64,000 nt of DNA from positions 1 to 64,000 of the IMG/VR virus record IMGVR_UViG_3300005253_000054. One strand, written 5' to 3'. The DNA comes from a virus. The position numbers were made by a program, and so were the translations under genes. Of this stretch, positions 1,798 through 20,210 are shown piece after piece (the first letter of the stretch is position 1; each line of letters opens with the position of its first letter). The notes under the pieces are model-generated. The model searched no databases, was not told the DNA's origin, and worked only from the letters and a program-made list of their open reading frames with translations.

Positions 1798-2188
1798 GGA
1801 ACAAGAGCCGATTGGTGGGTTGTTATGTGGATTGACACCTTATGAGATTCGATTGTTGACGGATGATCCGATAATTGGTGGGTATGGTCAATCCTTGAAA
1901 GATGTAAAACACTTTACTTTAGACCAAGTGTATATGATATTAGTAGAACGAAAGCATTTGAAAGAACATGATGATGGTGTTAGGACAAAATCAGTTGCTA
2001 GTTCGGATGTGGCTACAAAGGTCGATGCCGATGGGATGGTGGCAGCACGGGCTGAGGATGGTACACGGCTACGTCTGAAGACTGAGGGCAAGTCCCTTGC
2101 TAGGAGACTGATGGAAGAGGAACAGCATAAGAAGGAACGTCGGGCTCGTAAGAAACGACGTGGGAGGAAGCGACGATTGGAGGTATGA
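1757..2188 (+). CDS. frameshift extension of tail assembly chaperone (gpT-like)
   Basis: -1 frame relative to 1131..1769 with no stop from 1757 to 2188; includes track ORF 1820..2188. Confidence 0.7.
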   Translation, partial: KKWLGAATEKSSGPEQEPIGGLLCGLTPYEIRLLTDDPIIGGYGQSLKDVKHFTLDQVYMILVERKHLKEHDDGVRTKSVASSDVATKVDADGMVAARAEDGTRLRLKTEGKSLARRLMEEEQHKKERRARKKRRGRKRRLEV

Positions 2189-4466: not shown

Positions 4467-5374
4467 GTACAAACACGGACCCGTCCACCTGGCGATTGAG
4501 AACGGCCAGTGGGATCAGATACAAATTGATGGAAGGATTCCCCACTGGCACATTCGAGGATGAGAATGCTACTGCTGAAGAGCAGTATATAATACAAGCA
4601 CCCAATCTGTTTGCTTTTGTATTGGAATCGTTCCCCCCACCGATCGTGATTGGCAACTTTTTTATTAACCTACCGAAAAGATCTTTTCCATCATTGGTTT
4701 CTCTTCAGACCAAACGAATATCTTATCAACCATTCGAGGATGGAAGACCGTCTGATCCATTTGGTATTGATCTGGGGGCACCTGATGGCACGTATGCTGA
4801 TTTCTTATTGGTAACAATCAGTTACGCCACGGGTAAGAATAGTGGGGATGATAATAACCCAACTACCTTTTTGGAGATATCATCTAGTGCCACGGGTGAG
4901 ATTATTACAATACCTACAACTGGTAACAACTTTGGTTCACCCACTGGCGATCCAGTCCAAGATGGTGTTGTTCCAGTATCACAAGTTATACCTGAAACAG
5001 AATGGACTGTTAGATGGTCACAAATCCCTAATACTTTCTTTGATGTATTGCTTAATGTGATGCGACCTTTGATGGGGCGAGTAAGCAGTGTTCCAATGCC
5101 ATTGCTTAGAAATGCCGATGCATCTACTATTTTATTCATGGGATGGTCACACGAAGAACAGTTTACGTGGAAAAAGAATTTTGTGGATGCACCTCCTATC
5201 CAAGTGGAGATGCATTTCGTAGAGAAGAATCTTAATATCGACGGGTTTACCATAGGACACAATCACTTCTACAATCCAAAGACTGGGGCTTGGGAACAAT
5301 TATTCAATGCCAAAGGTGAATTGGTTTATCGTTCGGGTAATCTTAATAAAATGTTTCCGCCTTCGGTTGGGTAG
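4463..5374 (+). CDS. putative distal tail/tail tip protein
   Basis: ATGA overlap with tape measure gene; position in tail module. Confidence 0.5.
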   Translation: MSTNTDPSTWRLRTASGIRYKLMEGFPTGTFEDENATAEEQYIIQAPNLFAFVLESFPPPIVIGNFFINLPKRSFPSLVSLQTKRISYQPFEDGRPSDPFGIDLGAPDGTYADFLLVTISYATGKNSGDDNNPTTFLEISSSATGEIITIPTTGNNFGSPTGDPVQDGVVPVSQVIPETEWTVRWSQIPNTFFDVLLNVMRPLMGRVSSVPMPLLRNADASTILFMGWSHEEQFTWKKNFVDAPPIQVEMHFVEKNLNIDGFTIGHNHFYNPKTGAWEQLFNAKGELVYRSGNLNKMFPPSVG

Positions 5375-5379
5375 TTATT

Positions 5380-6573
5380 ATGGCCCGTGAAACCTTCCCC
5401 AGAAAAAAACCTGGTGATAGCTTAGAGGCTTCCCATGTCAATAAGCTATCACGAGTAGCAAGGCGTCTTTCCAATTTCCCGATAGGTTCCCATCAGATAG
5501 GCAAGCAAGGTGGAACATTTTCTGGTTCCGGTCCATACCCTCATTGGACGCAAGCCCCCGTTGAGATCACAAATAAGAAGATCGACTCAGACGATTCCGA
5601 AAACAGTGGATTATATTTATGCAAGATACGTTATTTTGATGGAGAAGAGTGGCAATTACAAGATCAGGAATATCAATTAGATGCTAATTCCATTAAAGAA
5701 AAATACGAAGTAGAGGATATTGTCACAGCCTATTTTTCACGTCAACGTGGGTTGTGGTTACCAATCACTTTTGTAGCCGGGATTCAATCATTCATAGAAG
5801 TAGAGGGAGTCACGACCACAACAATCGAGAAAGAAACGGGCGAAGATAGTTATGAGGTAGAATTTTGGTTAGAGCGTTCCTCTGGTGGACCATTCACCAT
5901 AGTTGGTGGTCGTACTTTCTTTATCAATGCTTACCATGAATCGGAGGATATTTCTGTAACTGGTGTGGGTTTCATTACATTCTTAGCACAACACAATGAG
6001 GTATTCCGATTGGTGGTAAGAGTATCAGAAGTATTGGAGGATGTTTCGAGTGTTTTGGGAGTAATGAAGTTTACGTCATTAGATAAGGATGGTATAACCA
6101 CCTCGGATACTTCGGCACCAGATGCAACCGTTGTAGGACGTCTAAGAGCCGTTGCTGAGGTAAATAATAACGATGGGGAATTGCGTTGGCCTAAGTACGA
6201 AATTCAGAATACATTGGAAGGTGTTAGGATACAAACACCCAAAGAGGAGACTTGGACAATAGAGGCGGACGTTTTGATTACGGCTGTGATCCAACCATCC
6301 TCGGCAAGTTCGGCCAGCACATCCTCGATTAGTACGTCGAGCCAAAGTGATGAGGTTAGCAGTGTTAGCAGTATCAGTACGTCATCCCCATCGTCACAAT
6401 CAATGTCTTCAATATCCACTAGTTCTAGCAGTGGAAGTAGTACTTCAACATCGTCCCAATCACCATCGTCCCAATCTTCGTTGTCATCACAATCCAGTAC
6501 ATCAAGCCAATCAAGTATTTCTACTAGTTCTAGTTCAATCAGCACAAGCAGTCAAAGTGATACTGGGGCATAA
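5380..6573 (+). CDS. putative tail protein with ~90 aa Ser/Thr-rich C-terminal tail
   Basis: C-terminus PSSASSASTSSISTSSQS...SSQSDTGA, encoded by mixed TCN/AGY codons. Confidence 0.65.
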   Translation: MARETFPRKKPGDSLEASHVNKLSRVARRLSNFPIGSHQIGKQGGTFSGSGPYPHWTQAPVEITNKKIDSDDSENSGLYLCKIRYFDGEEWQLQDQEYQLDANSIKEKYEVEDIVTAYFSRQRGLWLPITFVAGIQSFIEVEGVTTTTIEKETGEDSYEVEFWLERSSGGPFTIVGGRTFFINAYHESEDISVTGVGFITFLAQHNEVFRLVVRVSEVLEDVSSVLGVMKFTSLDKDGITTSDTSAPDATVVGRLRAVAEVNNNDGELRWPKYEIQNTLEGVRIQTPKEETWTIEADVLITAVIQPSSASSASTSSISTSSQSDEVSSVSSISTSSPSSQSMSSISTSSSSGSSTSTSSQSPSSQSSLSSQSSTSSQSSISTSSSSISTSSQSDTGA

Positions 6574-6595
6574 TCGTTTTTAGTGGAGACCCGAA

Positions 6596-7591
6596 ATGTC
6601 GTGTGTGTATCTTCGGAAAAGGGATGGCAAATCTGACCTATGTAATCTGTACGATGCGAAAGCAAAGTGCAAAAAATGCGAAGATATTCTTACGTTAGAT
6701 GATCCAGACCTATCATCCAAATTCAAAGACCCCCTAATTCTTACAGATCAAGACAGAAACAAGATAACCTGTTTTAGAAATCTGTTAGCTGGTCGCCCCT
6801 CATTCCTTGTTTGTGGTGGCCCGTCCGCGAATCAATTCCCCTTGGAAGTGCTAAACAACAGGGGTTGTTGGTCTATCGCTGTCAATAACATGGGAGGGCA
6901 TTCTCGTTTTCGTCCCAATGCCTTTACGTGTTCTGACCCTCCCAAAAAATTCCATAATGGGATATGGCTTGACCCCGGTATAATGAAGATCATTCCCATT
7001 CCCAAAACGAAAAGGAACCGTGGCAAACTCCGCGAGAAGCTCCCTAACGGGTCATTCCAGGACTTGCGGGATGACAAGGGGGAGATTATGTCATCTTGCG
7101 ATTGCCCGAACGTATGGGGCTATGGGAGGCGTTCCTGGATGGCTCTGGATGAGACGTTCTTTACTGACATAGATGCTGCTTGGGGCAACCATAATGTGGG
7201 AGTGAAGAAAACGGGCCAGCCCAAATGCGTCTGTACGATGCTGCTTGCAATGAGGATTCTTTACTATTTGGGATCGAGGCGAATCTTTCTGGTTGGTGTT
7301 GACTTTAACATGGATTCGTCAAGAGATTTGCTTGCCAATTATGCTTTCGGTGAAGAGCGGGATGATGGGGCTTGTCGATCAAACAACAGTCATTATGACA
7401 TAGTTAATAAGCAGTTATGTGAGATGCAAGAGGGAGGGATTTTCAAGAGATTCGGATTAGAGATATTCAATTGCTTTTCTAATTCAGGATTAAGGGCGTT
7501 TCCCTACGTCTCTTTTGAGGATGCCATAGGATGTGCTACAATGGGAATTCCAAGTGGGCCTTTTGATTTGCGTAACTGGTATAAGTCGTGA
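6596..7591 (+). CDS. Maf/DUF115-like (GT42/GT73-type fold) putative CMP-sugar-dependent glycosyltransferase
   Basis: VCGGPSA, IAVNN and ILYYLGSRRIFLVGVDF motifs. Confidence 0.6.
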   Translation: MSCVYLRKRDGKSDLCNLYDAKAKCKKCEDILTLDDPDLSSKFKDPLILTDQDRNKITCFRNLLAGRPSFLVCGGPSANQFPLEVLNNRGCWSIAVNNMGGHSRFRPNAFTCSDPPKKFHNGIWLDPGIMKIIPIPKTKRNRGKLREKLPNGSFQDLRDDKGEIMSSCDCPNVWGYGRRSWMALDETFFTDIDAAWGNHNVGVKKTGQPKCVCTMLLAMRILYYLGSRRIFLVGVDFNMDSSRDLLANYAFGEERDDGACRSNNSHYDIVNKQLCEMQEGGIFKRFGLEIFNCFSNSGLRAFPYVSFEDAIGCATMGIPSGPFDLRNWYKS

Positions 7592-7600
7592 GGTAACAAA

Positions 7601-8371
7601 ATGAGCATAACTTTCGTTAGGGTTTTGTATGGCGATGGTACTGGTTGGCCTAGACCGAAAGATGATCCCACTGGAGAGCACATGCGGGCTAGGAGTGTTC
7701 GTTTACTGAATCAAGATATTGATAGATCGTTTCAGAATGACCGCGATAACTTCTTCCGAGACAAAATCCATTATGTGACGATGGGAGAATGGGCTACTGA
7801 CAAATTACGAACACACAAGGTTAAGAACATCCACCAAGTAAATAAACATCCTTGGTGTCAGCCCAAAGGATATATACACTTCTGGCATAAGCTTTACTTA
7901 GTACGTGAGGCTTTGCGTTTATTTGGTGACGTAGTGTGTACCGATTTCGATTGTGTACCTACTGACGGTTTCGATGCTCGTTTTGGTGAGGCTGTAGATT
8001 CTATGGAGGGTAAAATCTTTCAAGCACCCTTGACCATATACCATCGACGTGCTTTTGCGTGGAGAGAATCAAGTGGGGAAGGCTGGAGTAAGGTCAGTAA
8101 GCACATTGGATTGTGTGGTAGCTTTATGTTGTTTCGGAATGTAGGAATGGTTAATGAATTTTTCGAGGATTGGGAAGAGTTGAATAAACTGTTACCCAAC
8201 AATACGATGGCAAGCGACCAAGCGATTACGTATAGTTTGGAAAAGAGACGGAGGATAAAAACTGTTAGAGAGACTTACGAAGAATGCGAGCCCGAAGCCA
8301 TTATCATACCGCGTAGTCCAATCCACGATTTGGGAATCACGAAAGACTCTGCTATATTCAGCCATAGGTAA
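7601..8371 (+). CDS. putative GT-A glycosyltransferase
   Basis: WHKL...VVCTDFD (DxD), CGSFMLF, SDQ motifs; cluster context. Confidence 0.5.
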   Translation: MSITFVRVLYGDGTGWPRPKDDPTGEHMRARSVRLLNQDIDRSFQNDRDNFFRDKIHYVTMGEWATDKLRTHKVKNIHQVNKHPWCQPKGYIHFWHKLYLVREALRLFGDVVCTDFDCVPTDGFDARFGEAVDSMEGKIFQAPLTIYHRRAFAWRESSGEGWSKVSKHIGLCGSFMLFRNVGMVNEFFEDWEELNKLLPNNTMASDQAITYSLEKRRRIKTVRETYEECEPEAIIIPRSPIHDLGITKDSAIFSHR

Positions 8372-8376
8372 GATCC

Positions 8377-8787
8377 ATGTTACCAACATTCTCGATACCG
8401 CCCATCGGTCCCAAACAGGGGAAAATATGGGGAGCAACTCAGTTGCTATTTGCTTACAATTCTGTGGAGTGTCATCTTATAGGGATAAGCAAGAGCGGTT
8501 TTTGTTCTAAACATACTCACGAATACAAGTGGAATCGTTTCGTAGTAGTTAGAGGTTCTTTAACTATCGAATCTTACCTCAATCCGGATTCTCCAGACGA
8601 AACCGTACTGATGCCTGGACAGATAACGGATATTCCTCCAGGGGTTCCCCATCGTTTCAAAGCTTCTACTGAGGATTGCATAGCCTTGGAGTTTTATTGG
8701 GTGGTATTGGAACCATTGGACATAGACAGAGGTGGAACCGTGGGAGGTGTGAAAGATGATCCATCGGATAAGAAAGGTGGTGAGTAA
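8377..8787 (+). CDS. cupin-domain protein (sugar isomerase-like)
   Basis: KIWG, SKHTHEYK, IPPGVPHRF cupin motifs. Confidence 0.8.
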   Translation: MLPTFSIPPIGPKQGKIWGATQLLFAYNSVECHLIGISKSGFCSKHTHEYKWNRFVVVRGSLTIESYLNPDSPDETVLMPGQITDIPPGVPHRFKASTEDCIALEFYWVVLEPLDIDRGGTVGGVKDDPSDKKGGE

Positions 8788-9035
8788 TGGGTCAGATGCA
8801 AACGTATGAAGTAGTTTATGTTGAGGGATTAGAAGCTGAGGTAAAACGATTGCGGAAGTTGTTTAGAGAAGTCCGCCAAGATTTTTTTGAGCAAGCAGAG
8901 GAAGAAATAAGGGAATATGCAGACAAGGGTAAAAGTTGGGTGGAAATTGAGGATATGCCGAAACGGAAAAAGTATTTTGATGCAGAGACAGAAAAACTTT
9001 GCAAAGGTGAAGACGATGAACCATCGAACGAATAA
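8787..9035 (+). CDS. hypothetical protein
   Basis: TAATG coupling with the upstream gene. Confidence 0.55.
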   Translation: MGQMQTYEVVYVEGLEAEVKRLRKLFREVRQDFFEQAEEEIREYADKGKSWVEIEDMPKRKKYFDAETEKLCKGEDDEPSNE

Positions 9036-9522
9036 ACTGATTAAGGTTCTGAACGATTACAAGATCAATCCTAAGATGGGTGCCGAGGTAGGCGTACAGT
9101 TTGGTAAGAATGCCTATGGAATGTTAAAGACTTTTCCTGATTTGCATTTGCTATTAGTTGATAGTTACGATCCGACTACGTTTTTCCATGATAGGCATAC
9201 GGCAGAAAATGCCCGGAATATGGCATTGGTTAGGTTGTTTAACTTTACCGATAGGACACAGTGGTTTGTAAAAACCAGTGTGGAAGCAGCAACAGAGATT
9301 CCAGACTATTCTCTCGACTACGCATTCATCGATGCAGGGCATGGTTACGACGACGTAAGAGCCGACATAGCAGCATGGTCTCCCAAGATACGTCATGGGG
9401 GCATACTTGCGGGACACGACTATACAAGACGTTTTAGAGGGGTTGTGAAGGCAGTCAATGAAGCCTTCGGTGGAAAGCACGAACGCAAAGGAGATCTATG
9501 GTGGATACAGATGGGAAAGTGA
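9016..9522 (+). CDS. class I SAM methyltransferase (Methyltransf_24-like)
   Basis: AEVGVQFG, FIDAGHGY, GGILAGHDY; in-frame ATG at 9016. Confidence 0.85.
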   Translation: MNHRTNKLIKVLNDYKINPKMGAEVGVQFGKNAYGMLKTFPDLHLLLVDSYDPTTFFHDRHTAENARNMALVRLFNFTDRTQWFVKTSVEAATEIPDYSLDYAFIDAGHGYDDVRADIAAWSPKIRHGGILAGHDYTRRFRGVVKAVNEAFGGKHERKGDLWWIQMGK

Positions 9523-10313
9523 TTCCTGATTTTACGATTGTTTTAGGTGTTGATCGCAAACATTTGTTTCAATTAGAACATACATTTCCTACGTGGAAAC
9601 GGCATAAACCATCCATGTTAGAACGTCCGATGATTGTGTTCTATGACCATGAGCAACTCGATCCATCAGACGTAAGGAAAGTAATTGACCATCACGATAT
9701 GATTATGATTCCCTGGCCACTTGCTGGAGTAGAGTATGAGGGAGGTAACGACAAATTCACGAATGCAAGACGGTATCGTATGTTGTCTGGATTCGTGCAT
9801 GTTCCGGCAAAGGTAGTGAAGACCCTTTGGTGGCTCAAGATCGACACGGATGCAATTGCCCACGGTATGGATGATTGGATTGATTCTAGTTGGTGGGCTG
9901 ATGATCCTATAATAATCTCACCGGGTTGGCCCTACACCAAGCCACCGAATCAGATGGTATTACTTGATGAATGGGTAGAACGGGAGAAAGACAAGCTGAT
10001 TGATTTTTATGAACGAACAGAGCCTTTGGATATGTTTCCCAAACCCGGAAGTGATCGACTTCCTCACAAACGGATTGGTACTTGGTGTGCCTTTTTCAAG
10101 ACTTCATTTACACAATATGCTTCTATGCTTGCTGAACAGACTTGTGGTCTTGGCAAGCTACCAGTACCATCGCAAGATAGTTACTTGTGGTATCTTGCGA
10201 CTCGTATGGGTCGTGGTATTCGTAGGGAGAACATGAAGAAACGAGGATGGGTATTGTTTGCTACAATGCCTAATATCAAACGATCAGCAGCGGAGGCTAT
10301 GGCAAATGGCTAA
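9498..10313 (+). CDS. putative GT-A glycosyltransferase
   Basis: WLKIDTD DxD motif and SQDSYLW; cluster context. Confidence 0.55.
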   Translation: MVDTDGKVIPDFTIVLGVDRKHLFQLEHTFPTWKRHKPSMLERPMIVFYDHEQLDPSDVRKVIDHHDMIMIPWPLAGVEYEGGNDKFTNARRYRMLSGFVHVPAKVVKTLWWLKIDTDAIAHGMDDWIDSSWWADDPIIISPGWPYTKPPNQMVLLDEWVEREKDKLIDFYERTEPLDMFPKPGSDRLPHKRIGTWCAFFKTSFTQYASMLAEQTCGLGKLPVPSQDSYLWYLATRMGRGIRRENMKKRGWVLFATMPNIKRSAAEAMANG

Positions 10314-10923
10314 CAGTGGACAAGATTTTATAAAAGCTGTCAAACCATTGCGATGGTCACCCGATGCTATTTATCAGGTAGGTGTGGGAAAACATTACCC
10401 AGAAGTAAAAGCATTCCAAAAGGAATGGCCAGAGGTTCCGATAACTGGTTGTGAACCCCATCCTTCTATTTACAGACGATTGACAGAAAAGTACCCTGGG
10501 AAAATCTACAATATAGCGATGGGTGAAGAGGATGGTTCGGTCGATCTTTACCATCGTAAGAAACACAAGGATGGTAGCTCAGTTTTCCAACGGAAGTATG
10601 ATCCGAATAGACCATTGGTAAAGCATCGTGTTACATGCGGTACTCTTGACACATTCTTTTGCGATAAGATTGCCAATGCCCTGTTATGGTTGGATTGCGA
10701 GGGTAGTGAATTACGGGTATTGCGGGGTGGTAAGAGATTCCTGAAGGGGGTTTCGGTTATCAATGTGGAAATGATTTCCGAGCCACCTTGTGATGGGTGG
10801 TGTTCTGCTAAGGATGTAAACAATGAATTGATAGGTAATGGATTTGTGTTACATTCGTCCCACACCCATCGAGATAATCACAATCAGTATGATGCCATTT
10901 ACGTAAGGAGTGGGATGGTATGA
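10306..10923 (+). CDS. FkbM-family methyltransferase
   Basis: QVGVG, GCEP, TLDTF, LWLDCEGSELRVLRG motifs. Confidence 0.85.
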   Translation: MANSGQDFIKAVKPLRWSPDAIYQVGVGKHYPEVKAFQKEWPEVPITGCEPHPSIYRRLTEKYPGKIYNIAMGEEDGSVDLYHRKKHKDGSSVFQRKYDPNRPLVKHRVTCGTLDTFFCDKIANALLWLDCEGSELRVLRGGKRFLKGVSVINVEMISEPPCDGWCSAKDVNNELIGNGFVLHSSHTHRDNHNQYDAIYVRSGMV

Positions 10924-11795
10924 CCAAACGCAGAGTGATGTATCTGGAAACAGGACCGGCCCACTTCCATAATTTGGTTGTGTCAATGTGGTCATTACGT
11001 AAGCATTGCGACGTACCAATACTTCTATACGCTTGGCCTCAGTCGTACGAAGTGGCTAAGCAGATAGCAGAGGATGATAGATTGGGAATTGAGGAAGTAA
11101 TTGAGTGGGTTCCTGATTGGATGGGTGGAGGTACTACGGCACAGTCAGAATGCAAACAGCAAATCATTCAGACAATAGATGCGGACGTGGTGTTATACCT
11201 TGATGCTGATACGTTGGTCGTTGATAGTCTGTGGACGTTGTTTGAGGGTGCATGGCATTATGGATTTTGTGGAGCCCAATTTAACAAGTGGATTACTACT
11301 GGTAAGAAGATAAGCAAACGCATTAGAAACTTGAGACAGTTTCCAGAGATTGATAAGGATTTGATTGACCGGCTATTAGCAATTCCTTGGCCAGCTACGA
11401 ACAGTGGAATCTTTGCTTGTGATCCCAAGTCCCCTGTAATTCCCAAATGGTATGAATATACAGTAGCAGCACGGAAATCTTTTATTCCAGACGAGAATTG
11501 TCTGTATCTTATGATGCCCTTATTCAAACCATTTGGGAATATGGCTGTGTTGGAAGGTGGGGCATGGAATAGTTCGACGCATTATCAAGACCCTGATTTG
11601 AAAGATGAAGACGTTGTTATCTGGCACTTCCACGGAGATAGCAACACACGTCCTAAGAAGTCTCCCAAGGGTGTAGAATTATGGTGGCCAGCCTATCAAG
11701 AGTGTGTGAAAGAGAACGTAGGAAACATACAATCGTGGAGAGAATCGGTTAGGAACAAACACTTAGATCGGCTGCTAAGAAAGAGATCACTATGA
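10920..11795 (+). CDS. GT8-like glycosyltransferase, paralog A
   Basis: LYLDADT, NSGIF, PDE, IWHFHG. Confidence 0.7.
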   Translation: MTKRRVMYLETGPAHFHNLVVSMWSLRKHCDVPILLYAWPQSYEVAKQIAEDDRLGIEEVIEWVPDWMGGGTTAQSECKQQIIQTIDADVVLYLDADTLVVDSLWTLFEGAWHYGFCGAQFNKWITTGKKISKRIRNLRQFPEIDKDLIDRLLAIPWPATNSGIFACDPKSPVIPKWYEYTVAARKSFIPDENCLYLMMPLFKPFGNMAVLEGGAWNSSTHYQDPDLKDEDVVIWHFHGDSNTRPKKSPKGVELWWPAYQECVKENVGNIQSWRESVRNKHLDRLLRKRSL

Positions 11796-12688
11796 AACGA
11801 CAAATCGTTTATCTAATGAGCAAGCCTGCACATCTTCCATATTTGGTGGTAAGTCTTGAATCATTACGAAAGCATTGGGATGGGAAAATAAAGGTTTATG
11901 CTTGGGCAGAATCCTATGATCTTGTAAAGAGGATTGCTGAAGATGAGCGATTGGGTATCAAAGCAAGCCTATTCGACCCATGCCACAAAGGACGCAATGC
12001 CCAATTTGAGTGCAAGCAACGGGTTATGCAATGGACTGATTGTGATGCGGGATTATACCTTGATGCTGATACGATGATTTGGAGCAGTCTCGATTTGTTA
12101 TTTGAAAGGGCGGAACGGTTTGGGTTTGCCGCCACCCAATACTGTGATCGTTACACTGATTGGCTTATCATACGAAATAGAATCAAGAGATTAAGGACGT
12201 TCCCTGAAATAGATAATGAGTTGATAGAGAAGTTACTGACAAACAGATGGCCTACTGTAAATGGTGGTGTGTTCGCGTGTAAACCGTCGTCCCCAGTTCT
12301 ACCCTTGTGGCACAAATGGACAAAGGCAGCTAGGGAGATTTACATTGCGGATGAGGTTGTTCTGCACACTATGATGGTCAAGTTTGGTTTGTCGATGGAA
12401 ATGACAGTGGTAATGGAACAGGGCAAATACAATTGTTCTACTATGACTTACCTACATCCTCAAGGGTTGCGGGACGATCATGTACACGTTTGGCATTTCC
12501 ACGGTGATAAGTGTGTAAAGATAAACGATAAGAGGCCACACGAAGGCCATTGGTCGCCCAAAGGAATTGGGCTGTGGTGGCCTGCTTTCTGTAGTGCTGT
12601 GAATCGAAACGTAGGTGGAATGCAGGAATGGTGGAAGGATGTTGATAACAAACATTTAATGAATCTTTACGATAGGGTAACAATATGA
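11792..12688 (+). CDS. GT8-like glycosyltransferase, paralog B
   Basis: LYLDADT, NGGVF, ADE, VWHFHG; colinear with 10920..11795. Confidence 0.7.
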   Translation: MKRQIVYLMSKPAHLPYLVVSLESLRKHWDGKIKVYAWAESYDLVKRIAEDERLGIKASLFDPCHKGRNAQFECKQRVMQWTDCDAGLYLDADTMIWSSLDLLFERAERFGFAATQYCDRYTDWLIIRNRIKRLRTFPEIDNELIEKLLTNRWPTVNGGVFACKPSSPVLPLWHKWTKAAREIYIADEVVLHTMMVKFGLSMEMTVVMEQGKYNCSTMTYLHPQGLRDDHVHVWHFHGDKCVKINDKRPHEGHWSPKGIGLWWPAFCSAVNRNVGGMQEWWKDVDNKHLMNLYDRVTI

Positions 12689-13311
12689 AGAATTTTGACA
12701 TTGATATGTCAGAGCATGATTTTAAGTTCAAGCGGAAGTGGTTTAAGAATCGCAATTTGCAAACATTTGTTGAATACATTTACCTCAAGTGGGCAGGTAA
12801 ACCCATTTTGTATTTGGAAATAGGTGTGTTTGAGGGAATGAGTTTAACGTGGATGTTTCAGCACATTTTAACCCATCCTGAATCTAGGGCTGTAGGAATC
12901 GACCCTTGGCTACCAATGCCTCCCAAATGGAATATGGAGCAGATAATAGGGATAAGAGAACATGCCTTACACAACTTGAGTATGAGGGATCGTCTTGAAT
13001 TGATTCATGCTAACAGTGTTACGATCCTTGATGTAATGTTAAGGAAAAAAGGCTATGCTGGAGTTAGTCGGGGCTCATTAGATTTGTGTATGGTGGATGG
13101 TGACCATCACGCTTTGGGTATGTTGGCCGATGCCAAAATGTGTTTGCCTTTGATGAGGAAAGGTGGTTGGTTATTGTTCGATGATGTGGAATTATCAATG
13201 CCGAGGAAAGACCAAGTCAAAGAAGGATTACGGATGTTTGTAGAACAACACGGGAATGAAGTAAAGAGGGTTTTCAAGCATAAACACATGGAAGCTTACG
13301 AGGTATTGTGA
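12685..13311 (+). CDS. class I SAM methyltransferase (Methyltransf_24-like)
   Basis: LEIGVFEG, IDPW, VDGDH, GGWLLFDD. Confidence 0.85.
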   Translation: MKNFDIDMSEHDFKFKRKWFKNRNLQTFVEYIYLKWAGKPILYLEIGVFEGMSLTWMFQHILTHPESRAVGIDPWLPMPPKWNMEQIIGIREHALHNLSMRDRLELIHANSVTILDVMLRKKGYAGVSRGSLDLCMVDGDHHALGMLADAKMCLPLMRKGGWLLFDDVELSMPRKDQVKEGLRMFVEQHGNEVKRVFKHKHMEAYEVL

Positions 13312-14021
13312 TATCAGCCAGATTCCAAATCGTATTTACCTACCGTTGCAATCTGAATTGCAAATGGTGTGATAGGTTTATGGACTCTGTTCCTTGGCCT
13401 GATTCTGATATGGTAGGGGGTGATTTAGCATTTGGGTTAAGTGCCATTAAGCAGAGTGGGATTGAGATTGAGCAATGCCGTATTGGTGGTGGTGAAGCTA
13501 AGATGCACCCATGTTTTGCTAGTATGGCATACTACGTTAGGTTCATTTGGGGTAATGATAAAATCAGAACGTCAGTTTCTACTAATACTTTGATACCAAA
13601 TGACAAAAGCCTAGAAGTAATCTACCAAGAGGCTGGACCGAAAACGAAAAGTAAACACACTCCAGTAATGATTTCCCCTTACGATTTGGGCCTCGATCCG
13701 GAGCAGGGTTTTGTGAGTCCGTGTCGTATGTCCCGCGTATGTGGTAGGCTATTTGATGCCTTTGGTTTTGCTGCCTGTCCTTACGAGGGGCCTATGGGTA
13801 GGTTATTTGGTATTGATCCTTACCAAGCAGAGCCCGTGATGTTGGGACGATATGATTTGTGTTGTCATTGCGTCCATTCATTACCTACAAAAAAGAAGAA
13901 AGCAGTATGGCAGGATGCTTTGGATGGTAAGATAGAATTCCCAACCAAGTCTTATCGAGAAGCATTAGATAGGTTTGCAGAACATCCCACCGTGTTCAAA
14001 CGATTCCAAGAGAGATTGTAA
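13308..14021 (+). CDS. radical SAM protein
   Basis: TYRCNLNCKWC (CxxxCxxC), GGGE, additional C-terminal cysteines. Confidence 0.8.
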   Translation: MISARFQIVFTYRCNLNCKWCDRFMDSVPWPDSDMVGGDLAFGLSAIKQSGIEIEQCRIGGGEAKMHPCFASMAYYVRFIWGNDKIRTSVSTNTLIPNDKSLEVIYQEAGPKTKSKHTPVMISPYDLGLDPEQGFVSPCRMSRVCGRLFDAFGFAACPYEGPMGRLFGIDPYQAEPVMLGRYDLCCHCVHSLPTKKKKAVWQDALDGKIEFPTKSYREALDRFAEHPTVFKRFQERL

Positions 14022-14023
14022 CG

Positions 14024-14602
14024 ATGAGACAATGCACGGCTAATGGTGGTTTTCCAAGACGTCACGCGAAGAAAAGAGGGGATGCCTTCAGTGATAAGAT
14101 AGCACAGATTATCGAAATGGTAATCCCAAAAGATAAATTAGTTGTCGATTTTGGTGCAGGTGCTTATGGTACGTATGTTCGATGGATGTTGGATAATGGG
14201 TGGGAAAACGTGGCGGGTGTTGATGGATCGTGGGGGGTTGAAAAGTTAAGTAAGGGTCTTGTAAAGTTTGGTGATTTGTCGTTATGTCTAACTGTTGGTG
14301 AGGGTAGAATGATTCCTGTTATTCCAGACTGGATTATCAGCATCGAAGTAGGAGAGCATATACCACCAGAGAAAGCCGATGTATTTATGGACAATCTTTC
14401 GGTAGCTAAAGAAGGGATTCTAATGAGTTGGGCTTTGCCAGGGCAAAAGGGATTCCATCACGTCAATTGCCGGATGATTGAATGGGTTGCTTGTGAGATG
14501 GGTAAACGCGGATTCTCTGTTGATGACGTTGCAACGATGGAAGCTAGAACTTTTCGCAGGCATGTATTACGTAAGAGATTATTAGTTCTGAAAAGGGATT
14601 GA
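14024..14602 (+). CDS. class I SAM methyltransferase
   Basis: VDFGAG, GVDG, SIEVGEHI, SWALPGQKGFHHVN. Confidence 0.85.
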   Translation: MRQCTANGGFPRRHAKKRGDAFSDKIAQIIEMVIPKDKLVVDFGAGAYGTYVRWMLDNGWENVAGVDGSWGVEKLSKGLVKFGDLSLCLTVGEGRMIPVIPDWIISIEVGEHIPPEKADVFMDNLSVAKEGILMSWALPGQKGFHHVNCRMIEWVACEMGKRGFSVDDVATMEARTFRRHVLRKRLLVLKRD

Positions 14603-14606
14603 ATCA

Positions 14607-15164
14607 ATGATCCATTACCCAACGTTCCAATTTGCCAGCCCTCCACGGACAGCCACGACTTGGTTTTGTCAGGCTGCCCACATAGCCGGATTGGGTTGGG
14701 GTGATAAGGCCCATGCCCACATACCACCTCCAGAAAACTTTGGTGGTGTCAACGTTTGCTTGGTGAGACATCCTTACGATTGGCTTGTGAGTTATTACTA
14801 TGCTTTGCTAGGTGGGGCCATTGGTGTGGATTGTGTAGATGTGTTTGTCCCTATGGCGAGGGAGTCTAAAGACCTCAAGCAGTTCGTTAGAAGATACACA
14901 ATAGAATATCCCGGAGCTATTTGGGATATGCACCGAGCATACCAAGCCTCGATTGTGTATAGAGTGGAAGACTTGCCTTGGAATGTGATCGGATTTTTTG
15001 AGTCATTAGGTGTGAAGAAACATCTGTTAAAGAAACTGGAAACGGCCGGGCCTACGAATGTCTGCCAAAACATACCATATGCAGACTTCCCAAAATTGAA
15101 GAAAAGAGTTTGCGAAGTAGAGAAAGAATTTTGTGAGAGGTATGACTATGACTATTGGAACTAA
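14607..15164 (+). CDS. sulfotransferase-family protein
   Basis: 5'-PSB-like SPPRTATTW and 3'-PB-like VRHPYDWLVSYY. Confidence 0.75.
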   Translation: MIHYPTFQFASPPRTATTWFCQAAHIAGLGWGDKAHAHIPPPENFGGVNVCLVRHPYDWLVSYYYALLGGAIGVDCVDVFVPMARESKDLKQFVRRYTIEYPGAIWDMHRAYQASIVYRVEDLPWNVIGFFESLGVKKHLLKKLETAGPTNVCQNIPYADFPKLKKRVCEVEKEFCERYDYDYWN

Positions 15165-15879
15165 ATACACTGATAGCATGGTTGTGATTCCTGCCCGTTT
15201 GCAATCAAGACGGTTTCCAAGGAAACCATTACAGATGGCAGGCAACAATTCTTTGTTACAACATACCCACCATCAAGCTAGGAAATCAAGGGCATCTGTG
15301 GTATGCGTTGCCTCTGCCGATCCAGAGATTCAAGATCATTGTGGTAGGAATGGGATAGCTTGGTGGCCCACGTCACAAGCTCACATGACGGGCACCCATC
15401 GCTGTGCTGAGGTTTTAGAGTTGGTGGATGGATCAGTGGGGATTGTAATCAATTGGCAGTGTGATGAACCGTTAGTCCTACCTGAGTGGATTGACTTGAT
15501 GATCGAGAAAATCATCCAGATTGGTGCTGATATTGTAACGTTGGTAGCATCCTTATCAGCACCAGCGGCAGAAAATAAGAACGTTGCAAAGGTTGTTGTG
15601 TCAGATGATAGGTGTATGTGGTTTAGTCGATTGCCATTGTATGATAGTAAAGCTCACATAGGAATCTACGCTTTTCGATCTGAGATTCTTAGGAAACTTG
15701 GGAAAATGCAACGAACAAATCTGAGTAGGGGAGAATCGCTTGAACAATTAGCTTGGTTGGAAGCGGGATATAAAATCAGTTATATTGAGGTAGATCATTT
15801 ACCGTTAGCTATTAACACTCCACATGATTGGAAACGGTTTGCAGATAAGTTCGATCAACAGGAAATAAATAGATTGTGA
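15133..15879 (+). CDS. kdsB: CMP-Kdo synthetase-like cytidylyltransferase
   Basis: IPARLQSRRFPRKPL, TGTHR, QCDEP, FSR, HIGIYAFR, ESLEQL; start may be ATG 15142 or 15148. Confidence 0.85.
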   Translation: MRGMTMTIGTKYTDSMVVIPARLQSRRFPRKPLQMAGNNSLLQHTHHQARKSRASVVCVASADPEIQDHCGRNGIAWWPTSQAHMTGTHRCAEVLELVDGSVGIVINWQCDEPLVLPEWIDLMIEKIIQIGADIVTLVASLSAPAAENKNVAKVVVSDDRCMWFSRLPLYDSKAHIGIYAFRSEILRKLGKMQRTNLSRGESLEQLAWLEAGYKISYIEVDHLPLAINTPHDWKRFADKFDQQEINRL

Positions 15880-16556
15880 AGACCCTAACAATCGTGGTCC
15901 ATTGCTGGCATTATGAGCATATGTTGGCCTATCAATTGTCGTCATTGGTAAAACACCCACCTAAAAAGATTCAAGTGGGTATACTGGTTCTTACTGAGAA
16001 AAGAGACACTGAGACAAAAAATCTAGTGGATGGTTTCGGTAAGATGTTTTCTGTTGATGTTAGTTGTTTAGTAACTCATGCTCCTGAGTTTTTTAATCGT
16101 GGTCTTGGTAGGAATTGGGTGGCAAAACGATTACAGCGTGACATAATTTGGTTTGCTGATGCTGATTACTGCTTTGGAAAAGGTTGTCTTGATTCATTAA
16201 CAGATATTGAATTAAAGGATGATTGGTTATATCATCCTAAACAAATCCAGCAAACGAAACATGGTAGTGGTCCAAAATATGATATACCACTAATATGTTA
16301 TGGAACTCGTCCCATAGACCCGTCAGACTTTAGAACCAAAATAATCAAACGTGCTATAGGTGGAATCCAAATCGTTACAGGAAACACGGCACGCAGCAGA
16401 GGATACCACACATACGACTACCGAGTACGTAAAGAGGCAACGGAGTGGGTACGTGGTAGGCATGAAGACGTAAGATACAGAAGACAGTTTCATAAGCTAG
16501 GACAAATCCAATCCATTGATATACCTAATTTGTTTAGGATACACAGGGACCGATGA
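15876..16556 (+). CDS. GT2-like glycosyltransferase, paralog 1
   Basis: RGLGRN, IWFADADY, AIGGIQIVTG, HED. Confidence 0.7.
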   Translation: MKTLTIVVHCWHYEHMLAYQLSSLVKHPPKKIQVGILVLTEKRDTETKNLVDGFGKMFSVDVSCLVTHAPEFFNRGLGRNWVAKRLQRDIIWFADADYCFGKGCLDSLTDIELKDDWLYHPKQIQQTKHGSGPKYDIPLICYGTRPIDPSDFRTKIIKRAIGGIQIVTGNTARSRGYHTYDYRVRKEATEWVRGRHEDVRYRRQFHKLGQIQSIDIPNLFRIHRDR

Positions 16557-17287
16557 GGAAAAAGAGACTCGATATATTCGTACATTGTTGGCAATTCTCC
16601 AAGACGTTGACGTATCTATTATCATCGTTGGTATTACACCCACCCAAAAATCTAAGGGTGAAAGTGATAGTGGCCTGTACGGAGTCAGACCAACCTACGC
16701 TGGATGTAATCCATTATTTTAGATGGCAGCATAGAGTATGGGTGTTGCCTTATCTAATGACCAAATCTCGATTGTTCAACCGTACCATTGGCAGGAATGA
16801 ACTGGCGAAAAATACAAAGGCTAATCTCGTTTGGTTTACTGATGCTGATTACTTTTTCGGTGAGGGCTGTTTTGATTCATTGGGTGAAAAGATTGAACAC
16901 TTCAAGCCTAACAATATATATTTTCCACATCACATCTTACAGAATAGAACGAAAGAGCAGGGGGATGATTACGTTCGCAAGGTATCTGATTTAGGAGTGT
17001 ATGATATAAAAACCTCTGATTTCGTTGCTAAGTCTATGCAAAGAGCTATAGGTGGAATCCAAATCGTAACAGGCAATACAGCAAGGAAACATGGTTACTG
17101 TGAAACCAAACCAGAATTCTTACGCCCCGTACGTTCGAGGAAATGGAATACCCGGATGTTTTGTGCTGATGTATGGTATCGAGCTTTGGTCGTAGGGAAG
17201 TTGTATTCCAGAGGTTATAGAATTACACTTCCTAATGTTTACCGTATCAGACAATCAATTCCTGGAGTAGTGGATACGTTAGAATGA
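16553..17287 (+). CDS. GT2-like glycosyltransferase, paralog 2
   Basis: RTIGRN, VWFTDADY, AIGGIQIVTG. Confidence 0.7.
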   Translation: MRKKRLDIFVHCWQFSKTLTYLLSSLVLHPPKNLRVKVIVACTESDQPTLDVIHYFRWQHRVWVLPYLMTKSRLFNRTIGRNELAKNTKANLVWFTDADYFFGEGCFDSLGEKIEHFKPNNIYFPHHILQNRTKEQGDDYVRKVSDLGVYDIKTSDFVAKSMQRAIGGIQIVTGNTARKHGYCETKPEFLRPVRSRKWNTRMFCADVWYRALVVGKLYSRGYRITLPNVYRIRQSIPGVVDTLE

Positions 17288-18012
17288 AACGAATCGAAAT
17301 AGTTACTCACGTTTATGCTAAGATTTTACCTCATTATGCTCAAGCATTGACGTATCAGTTAAGTTCTCTGAATCTCTACAGATCGAAAGCAGACGTTTCG
17401 ATTATGATTTGCCTTGATATGACGGATGCCAAAGCCGTAGAGGTTTTATTATGGTTCAGTTTGCAATACTCTTTTCCGATTAAGATAAGAAACTTTCCTA
17501 TCGAACGATTAGGACGTAGGGCAATCGGTAGGAATATAGTAGCTAGGGAAACCGAGGCCGATGTGGTTTGGTTTACGGATGTGGATTATCTTTTCGGTGA
17601 GGGATGTTTGGATGCTGTAGCTGATTTCGTTTGGCCTGAGAAATCTGGTTTGGCCTTTCCCCATTATGTACAAATGAGTCACGACCATGAATTAGGAGAT
17701 TCAATTCTATCCGAAGCAGTATATCCCCAACTTGTTGACGTCGATCCTAAAGACTTCTATCCCCATGAGGTTACACAACCTCCGGGTGGTTGTTTTATCA
17801 TCAAGGGGGATTTCGCGAGAGAACACGGTTACCTACCTGGCCATAAGAAATACCAATCGCCGACAGACGGAGTTTTCCTATCGTGCAAATGCGATGTGCC
17901 TTACCGATCCTATTGCAAGCGGAATGGGGATGGTGCAAAGGTAATTGAGATTCCGAACGTGTTTAGAATTAGACATACGAAAACGGCCCATAAACATGGA
18001 GCACAGATGTAA
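17284..18012 (+). CDS. GT2-like glycosyltransferase, paralog 3
   Basis: RAIGRN, VWFTDVDY, PPGG. Confidence 0.7.
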   Translation: MKRIEIVTHVYAKILPHYAQALTYQLSSLNLYRSKADVSIMICLDMTDAKAVEVLLWFSLQYSFPIKIRNFPIERLGRRAIGRNIVARETEADVVWFTDVDYLFGEGCLDAVADFVWPEKSGLAFPHYVQMSHDHELGDSILSEAVYPQLVDVDPKDFYPHEVTQPPGGCFIIKGDFAREHGYLPGHKKYQSPTDGVFLSCKCDVPYRSYCKRNGDGAKVIEIPNVFRIRHTKTAHKHGAQM

Positions 18013-18290
18013 TGTTAGGATGGTTTAAGAGATTGTTAAGATGTTGGTTGTTGGTAGAAAGTCGTCCGTCGATGATTTTGGAAGTGGTGCTTGGTGGTGA
18101 TATTCAGAAAGTTGTAGTAAGTAAGGTTGTAGGTAATCGAATCCTTTGCACAATTCCAGGCAAGGGAGAATCGGCTTGTCATCTGATTGGAATTGGGCAG
18201 GCTGTAGATAAGAAGCATTTTCAAGAGTTGTTAAAGACTTTGGGCGGTGATGAATGGTTCTGGCCTGATGGTTCCGTGGCCAATCTCTAA
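18012..18290 (+). CDS. hypothetical protein, last gene of the late operon
   Basis: TAATG coupling; followed by non-coding gap. Confidence 0.55.
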   Translation: MLGWFKRLLRCWLLVESRPSMILEVVLGGDIQKVVVSKVVGNRILCTIPGKGESACHLIGIGQAVDKKHFQELLKTLGGDEWFWPDGSVANL

Positions 18291-18474
18291 CGCTCTCTGT
18301 AGCGTGAACACCCCTCGCTTGGGTATCCTGTTTCTACATTACAGGGGTAGAAAGTGGGCCGATTCTGTCTCTTCTGGAAAAGTTTTTCGTGACCGCAAAC
18401 CCCGTAAAACACGGCATTTACGGCATTTTAACACTCTTTCCGGGCTCAGAGGGAAAAACTTTCTGGATTCGGTA

Positions 18475-18503
18475 TTGACAGCTTGCCGAAAATATGGTAT
18501 ACT
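18475..18503 (+). promoter_or_regulatory. strong sigma70-type early promoter
   Basis: TTGACA-17 bp-TATACT with TGn extension. Confidence 0.8.
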
Positions 18504-18557
18504 TAGATATAGACGAGGGGGAAACAACGGAAACCACTAACCAAGGGAGACGAGACA

Positions 18558-18731
18558 ATGACAACCAGAAACAGAATCGAATGGAGCCGCGAAGACAATC
18601 GACAATACACCATCACTTACAGCGACGGAGTCGAGGTGACAGTCGAAGCTACCCGAAGCGATGACTTGCGAGCCAAGACCCTCCGCTACTACCGAGCGAA
18701 GAAAGGTGAGGTCACTTGGGGAATCAAATAG
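18558..18731 (+). CDS. 57 aa early protein (not in ORF track)
   Basis: SD AAGGGAG; MTTRNRIEWSREDN...WGIK. Confidence 0.65.
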   Translation: MTTRNRIEWSREDNRQYTITYSDGVEVTVEATRSDDLRAKTLRYYRAKKGEVTWGIK

Positions 18732-18769
18732 GACACGGGAGGCCCGCCGGGAATCAGCCCGGCGGATTT

Positions 18770-18877
18770 GGGGTGAATGGTTAGCTCGGGGATATGGTGA
18801 GTGTTGTAAAAAAGCTAGGACCACTTAGCAAATGCAATGCTGCCTCAAGCTGGATGGTTCGATTCCGTCTCACCTCA
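18770..18877 (+). ncRNA. tRNA-like RNA (acceptor stem, T arm, long arm, no D stem)
   Basis: GGGGTGA/TCACCTC-A; GATGG-TTCGATT-CCGTC; TAGCTCGGGG/CCTCAAGCTG. Confidence 0.55.
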
Positions 18878-18918
18878 CTTTATTTCAAGTATTTTGGCCA
18901 AACCCAAGGGAGAACGAA

Positions 18919-19116
18919 ATGCACAGAATCTGGTTACCAGCAGGCCGCCCCGGTATCGCGATTAACGGGACCGCCTACCAATGGGACAGCGAGAAGCAGC
19001 GGATTCTGCTCGCCGGAACCCTGGCGGTTGAATTCGAGGGCACCGGCATTCCTCTTCGCCTTCGTCATACGGACGGGTTCCGTGTCGATGACGAGGCGAG
19101 AAAGGCCGGACTGTAA
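18919..19116 (+). CDS. small early protein
   Basis: SD AAGGGAG before ATG 18919. Confidence 0.6.
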   Translation: MHRIWLPAGRPGIAINGTAYQWDSEKQRILLAGTLAVEFEGTGIPLRLRHTDGFRVDDEARKAGL

Positions 19117-19191
19117 TGCCGGCCCGCCACCTAACTCGGCTTCGCAACCGAGCGGGGTGCTTTACTTTTCACTTTCCCAAGGAGCAAGACA

Positions 19192-19434
19192 ATGAGCGAG
19201 AAACGACAATGCTACTGGCTTCAGGAATTGGAACCGAGTTCCAGCCATCCCGACCGGTATCGGGTCTGCGTCGTCACCGAAGGCGAACCGGGATACCACA
19301 AGACCGGCGGCGGTGACGTCGAACCGTGGTATTGGAACCAAGCGACGTGCGATGCGAAAAACAAGAGCTTCTTTGGCCTGAGCAAAGAGGACGCGATGCG
19401 GATCGTCGGTTCGTCGATGTTCTGCGACGCATAA
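19192..19434 (+). CDS. small early protein
   Basis: SD AAGGAG. Confidence 0.65.
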   Translation: MSEKRQCYWLQELEPSSSHPDRYRVCVVTEGEPGYHKTGGGDVEPWYWNQATCDAKNKSFFGLSKEDAMRIVGSSMFCDA

Positions 19435-19478
19435 CCCGAAACGCCGTCCGGCACGAACTCAAACCAAGGAGAACGAAA

Positions 19479-19601
19479 ATGAGTCCGAAAGAAATCGCCA
19501 AATTATACCGAATCGCTTTGATCAGAACCAATGGAAATGTCGAACGTGCTCGCAAATTAGTTGAGGCATATCTTGCAGGTTTTCTCACATCAGAGCATTA
19601 G
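19479..19601 (+). CDS. 40 aa early protein
   Basis: SD AAGGAG before ATG 19479. Confidence 0.55.
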   Translation: MSPKEIAKLYRIALIRTNGNVERARKLVEAYLAGFLTSEH

Positions 19602-19657
19602 TCGCTGACCGAACACATAGCCGTTTACAATCCTCTTACAATAGGAGATCTGAGAAA

Positions 19658-20194
19658 ATGAAGACTTACCAACCGACAGTCAGACTAACCCACGCGGTGG
19701 GAATCGTGGACGTGCATCAACACGGTGGTTATCCCTATCAGTGTGCCAAGCTGTACGAATCCAAGCAACGAAAGGATGGGGTATGGTATTGGGCTGCTGC
19801 TGGCCCCCAAGGCCCTGACCGACGCGGTGTAGAGATTCTGCAACAGGATGCTAAGGAATTGGCTGCCATCCACGATTGCGAGGTGCTGCCGATCCGATAT
19901 GGCTCTCGGGATGGTTTAGAATCGTTCAACGGATCGGCCCATCTGTCTGGCAATCCGATTGCAGAAATGTCCGATTTCGAGTCTGCTCAAGATGTGCGGG
20001 CCATCCTGTCTGACAATGGATGGATTCCGCTTTGCAAAATCCAAGACGGTGAGCATTGGGTAAAGGAACATTATCGGGCTATGTTGGTCTATTGTGATAA
20101 GCCCGGGGAAGCCAAGGCCGAAACTCTGATGTACGCTCAACTGGTCCATACTGGATCGACGAAGCGTAGTTCTGTTACTGTGGTTACTGATTAG
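19658..20194 (+). CDS. hypothetical protein
   Basis: SD TAGGAG. Confidence 0.65.
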   Translation: MKTYQPTVRLTHAVGIVDVHQHGGYPYQCAKLYESKQRKDGVWYWAAAGPQGPDRRGVEILQQDAKELAAIHDCEVLPIRYGSRDGLESFNGSAHLSGNPIAEMSDFESAQDVRAILSDNGWIPLCKIQDGEHWVKEHYRAMLVYCDKPGEAKAETLMYAQLVHTGSTKRSSVTVVTD

Positions 20195-20210
20195 AATAAG
20201 GAGAAACGCG

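Follow-up and report, generated by a model that had tools for sequence, protein, structure and literature searches.

Glycosylated phage particles are documented mainly in a few actinobacteriophages, where few enzymes are involved and the glycans alter immune recognition of the phage. Work credited to Freeman et al. in Cell Host Microbe in 2023 is said to have described virion glycosylation in mycobacteriophages, with few glycosyltransferases in the actinobacteriophages. Chlorovirus capsid glycans and mimivirus fibril glycans are made by virus-encoded, cytoplasmic, multi-gene pathways that include methyltransferases, and the serine-rich repeat adhesins of streptococci are glycosylated in the cytoplasm by GtfA/GtfB (family GT4) and then by soluble GT8 and GT2 enzymes encoded beside the acceptor gene. 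For mycobacteriophages, one account places the virion glycans on capsid and tail-tube subunits, at their C-termini (PMC12619734). Here we describe a block of 17 open reading frames (ORFs), A to Q, at positions 6596-18012 in the genome of an uncultured marine-sediment phage (IMG/VR record IMGVR_UViG_3300005253_000054), which appears to encode a glycan-building and glycan-decorating pathway. The stretch analyzed, hereafter the window, covers positions 1 to 64,000 of a viral contig of 100,283 bp; the contig carries a 121-bp direct terminal repeat at its ends, and the genome is therefore complete.

The best explanation, which we consider somewhat probable, is that the enzymes of the block form a soluble pathway by which the phage, on its own, would O-glycosylate serine tracts in the proteins of its particle. 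This reading draws on the predicted fold of the lead enzyme, a well-supported enzyme of sugar activation, the lack of export components in the block and the presence of serine-rich tracts on particle-module proteins, one of which is encoded directly upstream.

The lead enzyme and its gene block

The block spans 11.4 kb and, from the ORF list and translations, comprises the following ORFs.

6596-7591, + strand: gene A, Maf-like (DUF115/sialyltransferase-fold) probable protein O-glycosyltransferase (AlphaFold2 model, structural match)
7601-8371, + strand: gene B, possible GT-A glycosyltransferase (nearly invariant DxD; faint GT-A/GT8/GT34 signals; accessory, 3 of 30 related loci)
8377-8787, + strand: gene C, small metal-binding cupin, WbuC-like (Cupin_2, E = 1.3e-5, just under the cut-off; TIGR04366 WbuC, E = 4e-5)
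8787-9035, + strand: ORF D, 82 amino acids, acidic; doubtful as a real gene, with no homologue found among the related loci
8917-9522, + strand: gene E, class I S-adenosylmethionine (SAM) methyltransferase (Methyltransf_24, Pfam E = 2.6e-14; likely true start ATG 9016)
9498-10313, + strand: gene F, GT-A-fold glycosyltransferase candidate (invariant DxD; core gene, 30 of 30)
10258-10923, + strand: gene G, FkbM-family methyltransferase (Pfam E = 2.4e-11; TIGR01444, E = 2.7e-10; likely start ATG 10306)
10920-11795, + strand: gene H, GT8-like retaining glycosyltransferase candidate (paralogue of I, 48% identity)
11792-12688, + strand: gene I, GT8-like, paralogue of H (H/I alignment, profile)
12685-13311, + strand: gene J, class I SAM methyltransferase (Methyltransf_24, Pfam E = 2.1e-16; weak O-methyltransferase match)
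13308-14021, + strand: gene K, small radical SAM-like protein (Radical_SAM, 27.3 bits against a cut-off of 29.5; CxxxCxxC, Cys-rich C-terminus)
14024-14602, + strand: gene L, probable SAM methyltransferase, weak (Methyltransf_23, E = 0.005)
14607-15164, + strand: gene M, short sulfotransferase-fold protein (PPRT..TW and RHPxDW..SYY motifs)
15133-15879, + strand: gene N, cytidine monophosphate (CMP)-Kdo synthetase, KdsB family, Kdo being 3-deoxy-manno-octulosonate (PF02348, E = 1.1e-31, 110.7 bits against a cut-off of 22.6)
15876-16556, + strand: gene O, GT2-like glycosyltransferase candidate, one of three paralogues (Glyco_tranf_2_3, 26.8 bits against a cut-off of 27)
16553-17287, + strand: gene P, GT2-like paralogue (Pfam E = 0.0055)
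17284-18012, + strand: gene Q, GT2-like paralogue (no Pfam match; conserved member in relatives, 28 of 30)

Gene A has no sequence match in Pfam (E <= 0.01), NCBIfam or the PDB. Modeled with its family alignment as input, it gave an AlphaFold2 structure with a predicted local distance difference test score (pLDDT) of 94.5, and the best structural match of this model among 48,161 chains is the flagellin O-glycosyltransferase Maf (5mu5; Z = 13.3 over 202 residues, root-mean-square deviation 4.0). MptE (Z = 10.3, 3 units below Maf) and SteA come next, the CMP-sialic-acid transferases of families GT29 and GT42 reach Z = 8-9, and the top Foldseek list consists of CstII, GT29 and Maf, with weak E-values. 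With a confident model and Maf ranked first, gene A has the fold of the Maf central catalytic domain; structure prediction was among the checks proposed by the initial annotation of this locus. The family alignment shows an invariant GGPS loop and a conserved N-terminal Cys cluster. At least 284 homologue clusters, at 45-60% identity, occur on contigs of up to ~124 kb, and a search of 185,579 prokaryote species genomes returned 3 matches, two of them on contigs of metagenome-assembled genomes of 3.8 and 6.3 kb. As the family is nearly absent from prokaryotes, gene A is a phage gene and not part of a borrowed host island. Two homologues, P0050 and P0069, carry a ~35-residue insertion with CxxC...CxxC spacing together with additional Cys-rich N-terminal extensions, possibly zinc-ribbon modules.

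Gene N is a solid KdsB, as had been proposed. Five KdsB models of NCBIfam match it at E = 1e-32 to 2e-55, against E = 0.045 for PseF; the best of these, NF003952 (E = 2.2e-55), scores 187.5 bits, below its subfamily cut-off of 193. All 13 of its PDB matches are KdsB proteins, the best being 1gq9, 3-deoxy-manno-octulosonate cytidylyltransferase. Family searches of the complete genome found neither KdsA (Kdo-8-phosphate synthase) nor NeuB, so Kdo itself must be supplied by a Gram-negative host. The same kind of search found no adenosine phosphosulfate (APS) kinase in the complete genome, and the sulfate donor phosphoadenosine phosphosulfate (PAPS) would thus also come from the host. A PEP-CTERM sorting motif in a 180-amino-acid phage protein (window 41056-41598; E = 2.8e-5, above the Pfam cut-off) would fit a Gram-negative host with an exosortase system, and the host is probably Gram-negative.

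The decorating enzymes are of uneven certainty. Four methyltransferases had been claimed, of which E, G and J lie above Pfam cut-offs and L is weak. The sulfotransferase call on gene M stands by fold and lacks a counterpart in sequence: in its Atlas model (predicted TM score 0.82) the structural neighbours carry Sulfotransfer_1, 2 or 3 domains, at template modeling (TM) scores of 0.70-0.80 over 169-182 of 185 residues, and no Pfam match was found for the window protein or for 20 family members, nor any PDB profile match. By eye, its PPRT..TW and RHPxDW..SYY motifs resemble the two PAPS-binding motifs. The radical SAM protein K and the cupin C, both named by the initial annotation, each score just under a Pfam cut-off; K has only weak NCBIfam matches and no PDB match, and C likewise has no informative solved relative. 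One might guess at sugar isomerase- or epimerase-type chemistry for the cupin.

About eight glycosyltransferase-like genes had also been counted. The Maf-like fold of A and the GT-A fold of F bear this out, the GT8 assignment of H and I and the GT2 assignment of O, P and Q are weak, and the signal for B is faint, so that most of these calls are matters of weak remote homology. For gene F, the Atlas structure neighbours fall in GT15 and GT8 clusters at TM scores of 0.64-0.69, with no Pfam match even when family members were searched one by one and no PDB sequence match. The H/I family alignment has invariant D-A-D and H-x-H-G columns, and its profile matches glycogenin-2 weakly in the PDB (E = 0.0084), with no match to Glyco_transf_8 in Pfam. 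The profile of the O/P/Q family finds TarP, TarS and chondroitin synthase in the PDB, weakly, at E about 5e-4. Gene B has no Pfam match and, as a profile, PDB matches only at E = 0.37-0.83, to GT8 and GT34; a profile search of 1.84 billion proteins gave 121 remote homologues, and faint GT-A family matches appear in 5 of 60 members. Profile-profile comparisons (hhalign) among families B, F, H/I and O/P/Q gave nothing significant, so sequence gives no ground for calling them one family. At one related locus (L041:14037-15368) a gene-B homologue is fused to an N-terminal extension of ~200 amino acids with, by eye, a methyltransferase-like GxGxG motif; this fusion hints that gene B may act jointly with a methyltransferase.

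The arrangement of the block matches what was first noted for it, namely some 16 tightly coupled genes following the last tail gene with no evident promoter break. There are 17 ORFs, and 22 nt separate the last tail gene from gene A; gaps within the block are at most 9 nt, or are replaced by overlaps of 1-25 nt at the likely starts, with ATGA/GTGA-type overlaps common. Every gene in window 1-18,290 lies on the + strand, and a consensus scan, which is weak evidence, found no + strand promoter-like site better than 9/12 in 1-18400. The block is probably co-expressed with the tail genes. The following features mark the limits of this unit.

2160-4466, + strand: tape measure protein (TIGR01760, E = 4.5e-35), which marks the upstream genes as a tail module
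18475-18503, + strand: best sigma-70-like site in 1-19500, TTGACA-17-TATACT with TG, 11/12, a consensus match only

Two genes without a family match sit between the tape measure gene and the block and are called tail genes by position. The site at 18475-18503 likely starts the next transcription unit, which would set the 3' limit of a combined tail and glycan unit. Directly 3' of it, window 18001-22000 has a G+C content of 0.51-0.58, compared with ~0.43 in the flanking 36 kb, and numerous overlapping ORFs on both strands.

The absence of a flippase, a polymerase or any membrane protein, also part of the first description, holds as well. No 19-residue hydropathy window exceeds 1.67 in the products of 6596-18290, all 17 block products included, and no Pfam, NCBIfam or PHROG match in the block indicates a flippase, polymerase, GtrA/B-type protein or initiating transferase.

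Serine-tract proteins and conservation across the clade

The candidate acceptors are four proteins of this genome that bear SSISTSS tracts, all encoded in its particle-gene part.

5380-6573, + strand: last tail-module gene; the C-terminal ~90 amino acids (6295-6570) are 60% Ser, with SSISTSS repeats; candidate glycan acceptor
genome 98978, through the 121-bp repeat, to window 1-93, + strand: 425-amino-acid particle-module protein; candidate glycan acceptor (direct terminal repeat, Ser tracts)
between the minor head protein and the protease: 246-amino-acid Ser-tract protein (PHROG-placed neighbours)
just downstream of a weak terminase-like gene: 2095-amino-acid Ser-tract protein

PHROG matches to portal, protease, major capsid and minor head proteins served to place the neighbours of the tail gene and of the 425- and 246-residue protein genes. 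All six Ser codons are used in the tracts, which are therefore selected at the protein level.

The gene of the 425-residue protein sits between a conserved gene, g108, and the genes that follow the major capsid gene, which are probably head-tail connectors. In the protein, a jelly-roll core (residues 1-187; model pLDDT 90.7) is joined by a Ser-rich linker to a small second domain, and the chain ends in a tail that is again rich in Ser. Fold matches of the core are middling (Z <= 7.2) and include the cement protein of phage KHP40 (6.0) and the HFTV1 turret (5.6). A tail-tube fold was considered for the core and was not recognizable, all matches lying at Z < 8 and the neighbours among viral predicted structures being unnamed; from its model the protein looks more decoration-like than tube-like. 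Its second domain, at genome 99863-100160 (L133:15863-16160), appears to be a folded unit of ~100 residues with Ser tracts on both sides, as if carried on a flexible stalk.

Related loci were retrieved from viral contigs with family alignments; single-protein queries returned nothing. The A-family alignment recovered 51 viral loci carrying gene A, and an alignment of g108 added 80 more. Among 50,697 cultured-phage records, no match was found by megablast with the block or by tblastn with gene A or the tail gene at 4463-5374. Gene content was tallied over 30 non-redundant related loci with at least 9 kb downstream of gene A, and all 30 contain A, F, an H or I (GT8-like) gene and a GT2-like gene. 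The remaining genes vary: E occurs in 26, the cupin in 25, the sulfotransferase-like gene in 24, the FkbM methyltransferase in 23, KdsB in 19, J in 18, L in 13, B in 3 and K in 2. The same tail gene precedes the block in 22 of the 22 loci with enough upstream sequence, in agreement with the initial statement that the block is continuous with the tail operon, and three further loci show unbroken synteny from head genes (the minor head protein, and in one the portal) to the cluster. A large clade of uncultured phages thus has the block as a core module, in which four transferases are invariant and the tailoring set varies, in the manner of an O-antigen locus.

The serine tracts are conserved along with it. 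In relatives, tail-gene homologues that themselves carry Ser tracts are often found immediately upstream of gene A, and three Ser-tract carriers hold their positions in the relatives with full synteny. The serine tail of the jelly-roll protein, which starts near residue 188, is found in 116 of 120 homologue clusters and in nearly all of 77 assessable loci upstream of g108. One of the four apparently tail-less homologues was tried as a cluster-less control; its nearest viral contig (94% identity) carries both tail and cluster, and the tail-less case is therefore a truncated gene call. The only viral locus in which the jelly-roll protein upstream of g108 (191 amino acids) seems to lack the tail is L125:9279-9851, on a contig that ends 2.6 kb downstream.

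Beyond this clade, distant gene-A homologues (31-35% identity) are found on unrelated contigs of 74-186 kb, where a trio of A, a GT8-like gene and F heads other long runs of similar-sized genes. The trio is contiguous at L048:1-2448 and L050:9836-12625, heading runs of genes for 220-300 residues on contigs of 74 and 173 kb, and within the loci fetched neither has structural genes in common with the phage described here. The trio may be a mobile minimal cassette. When four distant gene-A carriers were searched for a WSN-codon pattern, their records showed S/T-type runs; the search had no control and carries little weight. In the window, a serine-codon pattern search also picked up a hexamer repeat, NGGTCT, at 38448-38506, which encodes an RS/GS/WS-type peptide.

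A probable self-made virion glycan and the alternatives to it

We suggest that the pathway would run as follows. The SSISTSS tracts on at least four particle-module proteins (the last tail gene product, the jelly-roll protein, the 246-residue head-module protein and the 2095-residue protein) would serve as acceptors. Enzyme A would take an acidic sugar activated with CMP and attach it to the hydroxyls of Ser/Thr or to a first sugar already in place, and the acidic sugar would most simply be Kdo, made by the host and activated by the phage KdsB. The GT-A enzymes (F; H and I; O, P and Q; perhaps B) would lengthen the chain with host nucleotide sugars, and the four methyltransferases and the sulfotransferase would cap it with the use of host SAM and PAPS. 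The outcome would be a mucin-like, partly anionic coat over head and tail surfaces.

The initial annotation had proposed a methylated, sulfated, ulosonic-acid-containing virion glycan. A block that builds and decorates glycans, with no export parts, a Maf-like lead enzyme, a KdsB and serine tracts close by, agrees with that proposal. Kdo, methyl and sulfate groups would be putative parts of the glycan; KdsB is present in 19 and the sulfotransferase in 24 of the 30 related loci. The co-occurrence that was to accompany such a system was likewise seen in one direction: Ser-rich particle proteins accompany the cluster throughout the clade, and no relative lacking the cluster was found, among the homologues and loci of the Ser-tailed jelly-roll protein that were examined, to act as a negative control. 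We put forward only tentatively the more specific proposal that a large and widespread clade of uncultured phages of ~85-105 kb makes a mucin-like coat of its own: a phage-specific Maf-like enzyme, working in the cytoplasm, would O-glycosylate long poly-serine hairs of head and tail proteins with Kdo, and a variable, O-antigen-like set of genes would serve to extend, methylate and sulfate the chain.

Several points weigh against a self-made virion glycan. We infer, rather than observe, the attachment of any glycan to any protein, and the Ser-rich tracts can be plain flexible linkers. Because nearly every member of the clade has the cluster and nearly every one has the Ser tails, the co-occurrence amounts to one evolutionary event. 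The fold likeness of the gene A model fixes neither donor nor acceptor, and gene A lies outside the Pfam model for Maf/MptE, as PF01973 (MptE-like) matched nothing in the whole genome at E <= 1. KdsB is missing in 11 of the 30 related clusters. Finally, since the fold matches of the jelly-roll protein are only middling (Z <= 7.2), we infer its place on the particle from gene position.

The alternative that survives best is that the enzymes remodel envelope glycans of the host (lipopolysaccharide (LPS) core, capsule or exopolysaccharide (EPS)), or host glycoproteins during infection, in each case by way of host export machinery. Such remodeling could, for instance, prevent superinfection or keep new particles from adhering to the remains of lysed cells. 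We regard this as unlikely. Loci for LPS, O-antigen and capsule typically contain genes of the KdsB, GT8, GT2, FkbM and WbuC types, yet the block has no initiating phosphoglycosyl transferase, flippase, polymerase, ligase or membrane protein. The best PDB match of gene N, 1gq9, is what we take to be the capsule-specific enzyme of E. coli, whereas the lead enzyme A is nearer to the protein-directed Maf than to enzymes of lipid-linked glycans. The phage PEP-CTERM protein points to a host with an exosortase/EPS system, and a published account reads phage kdsA/kdsB as host cell-wall modification genes (PMC12801897); set against this, the position inside the tail transcription unit is kept in 22 of 22 relatives. 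Family searches of the complete genome found no tyrosine integrase, which makes classical lysogenic seroconversion unlikely, and the earlier argument against O-antigen conversion gains from this, with membrane components missing from the block and an integrase missing from the genome.

Somewhat less likely again, in our estimate, is that the product of the block is a glycoconjugate, either soluble or bound to lipid, or that its target is a phage protein with no structural role, for instance the PEP-CTERM protein. The Ser tracts would then be unmodified flexible linkers. In at least one carrier the tracts do join folded domains, but gene A directly follows a Ser-tailed gene here and in many relatives. 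The accessory radical SAM protein, cupin and methyltransferases would also suit small-molecule tailoring, but all four core genes are transferases, and the block showed no genes for a polyketide, peptide or lipid scaffold.

A last possibility is that the enzymes hypermodify phage DNA by base glycosylation and methylation, as in T-even and other phages. A thymidylate-synthase-like hydroxymethylase is the usual source of the handle for DNA glycosylation, and family searches found none in the complete genome; a search of the genome for Tet/JBP was also empty and is uninformative, as its control matched nowhere either. We know of no Kdo activation, sulfotransfer or FkbM-type methylation directed at DNA, which speaks against this possibility. 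We judge it very improbable, since, even if phage glycosyltransferases often act on DNA (10.1101/2023.12.21.572611) and both Methyltransf_24 proteins match a PHROG labelled 'DNA methyltransferase', the block lies in the structural unit and outside the replication module, and the Maf-like fold would point to transfer of a CMP-sugar to hydroxyls of protein or glycan.

Comparison with known systems

A limited literature search, which is no proof of absence, found no description in phages of a Maf-like enzyme with poly-serine particle proteins. If the more specific proposal above is correct, the phage would be the first bacterial virus with a system for ulosonic-acid protein glycosylation, and its glycan the first sulfated one in phages. 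If the module acts as its anatomy suggests, self-made mucin-like coats would be common in environmental phages, given that the lead enzyme was found on more than 130 viral contigs and in 284 protein clusters. Kdo, O-methyl groups and sulfate would influence the charge and stability of the particle, its recognition by hosts and the way it adheres to sediment or to a biofilm matrix. The variable accessory genes among relatives resemble O-antigen diversity, and selection on phage surface glycans therefore becomes a testable question. A compact, membrane-free and soluble O-glycosylation toolkit with a defined peptide acceptor would also be of interest for glyco-engineering.

The closest enzymatic parallel is with the Maf flagellin O-glycosyltransferases (Magnetospirillum magneticum, 5mu5), with which gene A shares the fold, the position of a GGPS-type loop and the setting of a cytoplasmic, soluble system. 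In both cases a CMP-ulosonic-acid synthetase is encoded nearby, and the presumed acceptors are Ser/Thr residues of a secreted or assembled structural protein. Unlike Maf, gene A (~15% identity) has no PF01973 match, lacks the Maf flanking domains and has an N-terminal Cys cluster of its own; its putative donor is the 8-carbon Kdo and its putative acceptor phage poly-Ser, where Maf uses pseudaminic or legionaminic acid and flagellin.

Among phages, the mycobacteriophages offer the nearest case. The resemblance would lie in phage-encoded glycosyltransferases, in modification of C-terminal parts of particle subunits and in its being phage-autonomous and cytoplasmic. Measured against the mycobacteriophage type, glycosyltransferase genes here adjoin structural genes and particle-module proteins have Ser-rich C-terminal tails, which would be putative glycan sites. 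The present block differs in having ~8 glycosyltransferase candidates, a CMP-Kdo synthetase, four methyltransferases and a sulfotransferase, with a Maf-like lead enzyme; further, the candidate acceptors are long poly-Ser tracts (on the jelly-roll protein, the tail protein and two others), and the host is probably Gram-negative.

The streptococcal serine-rich repeat adhesins resemble the present system in their long Ser-rich tracts and in stepwise extension by GT8- and GT2-type enzymes encoded beside the acceptor gene. They differ from it in that the initiator candidate here is Maf-like and the candidate acceptor belongs to a viral particle and not to a bacterial adhesin. With the giant viruses the phage would share a cytoplasmic pathway of many virus-encoded genes, methyltransferases among them, whose products decorate the surface proteins of the virus itself. 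Theirs, however, are eukaryotic systems with unrelated enzymes and acceptors, whereas the module described here is that of a 100-kb tailed phage.

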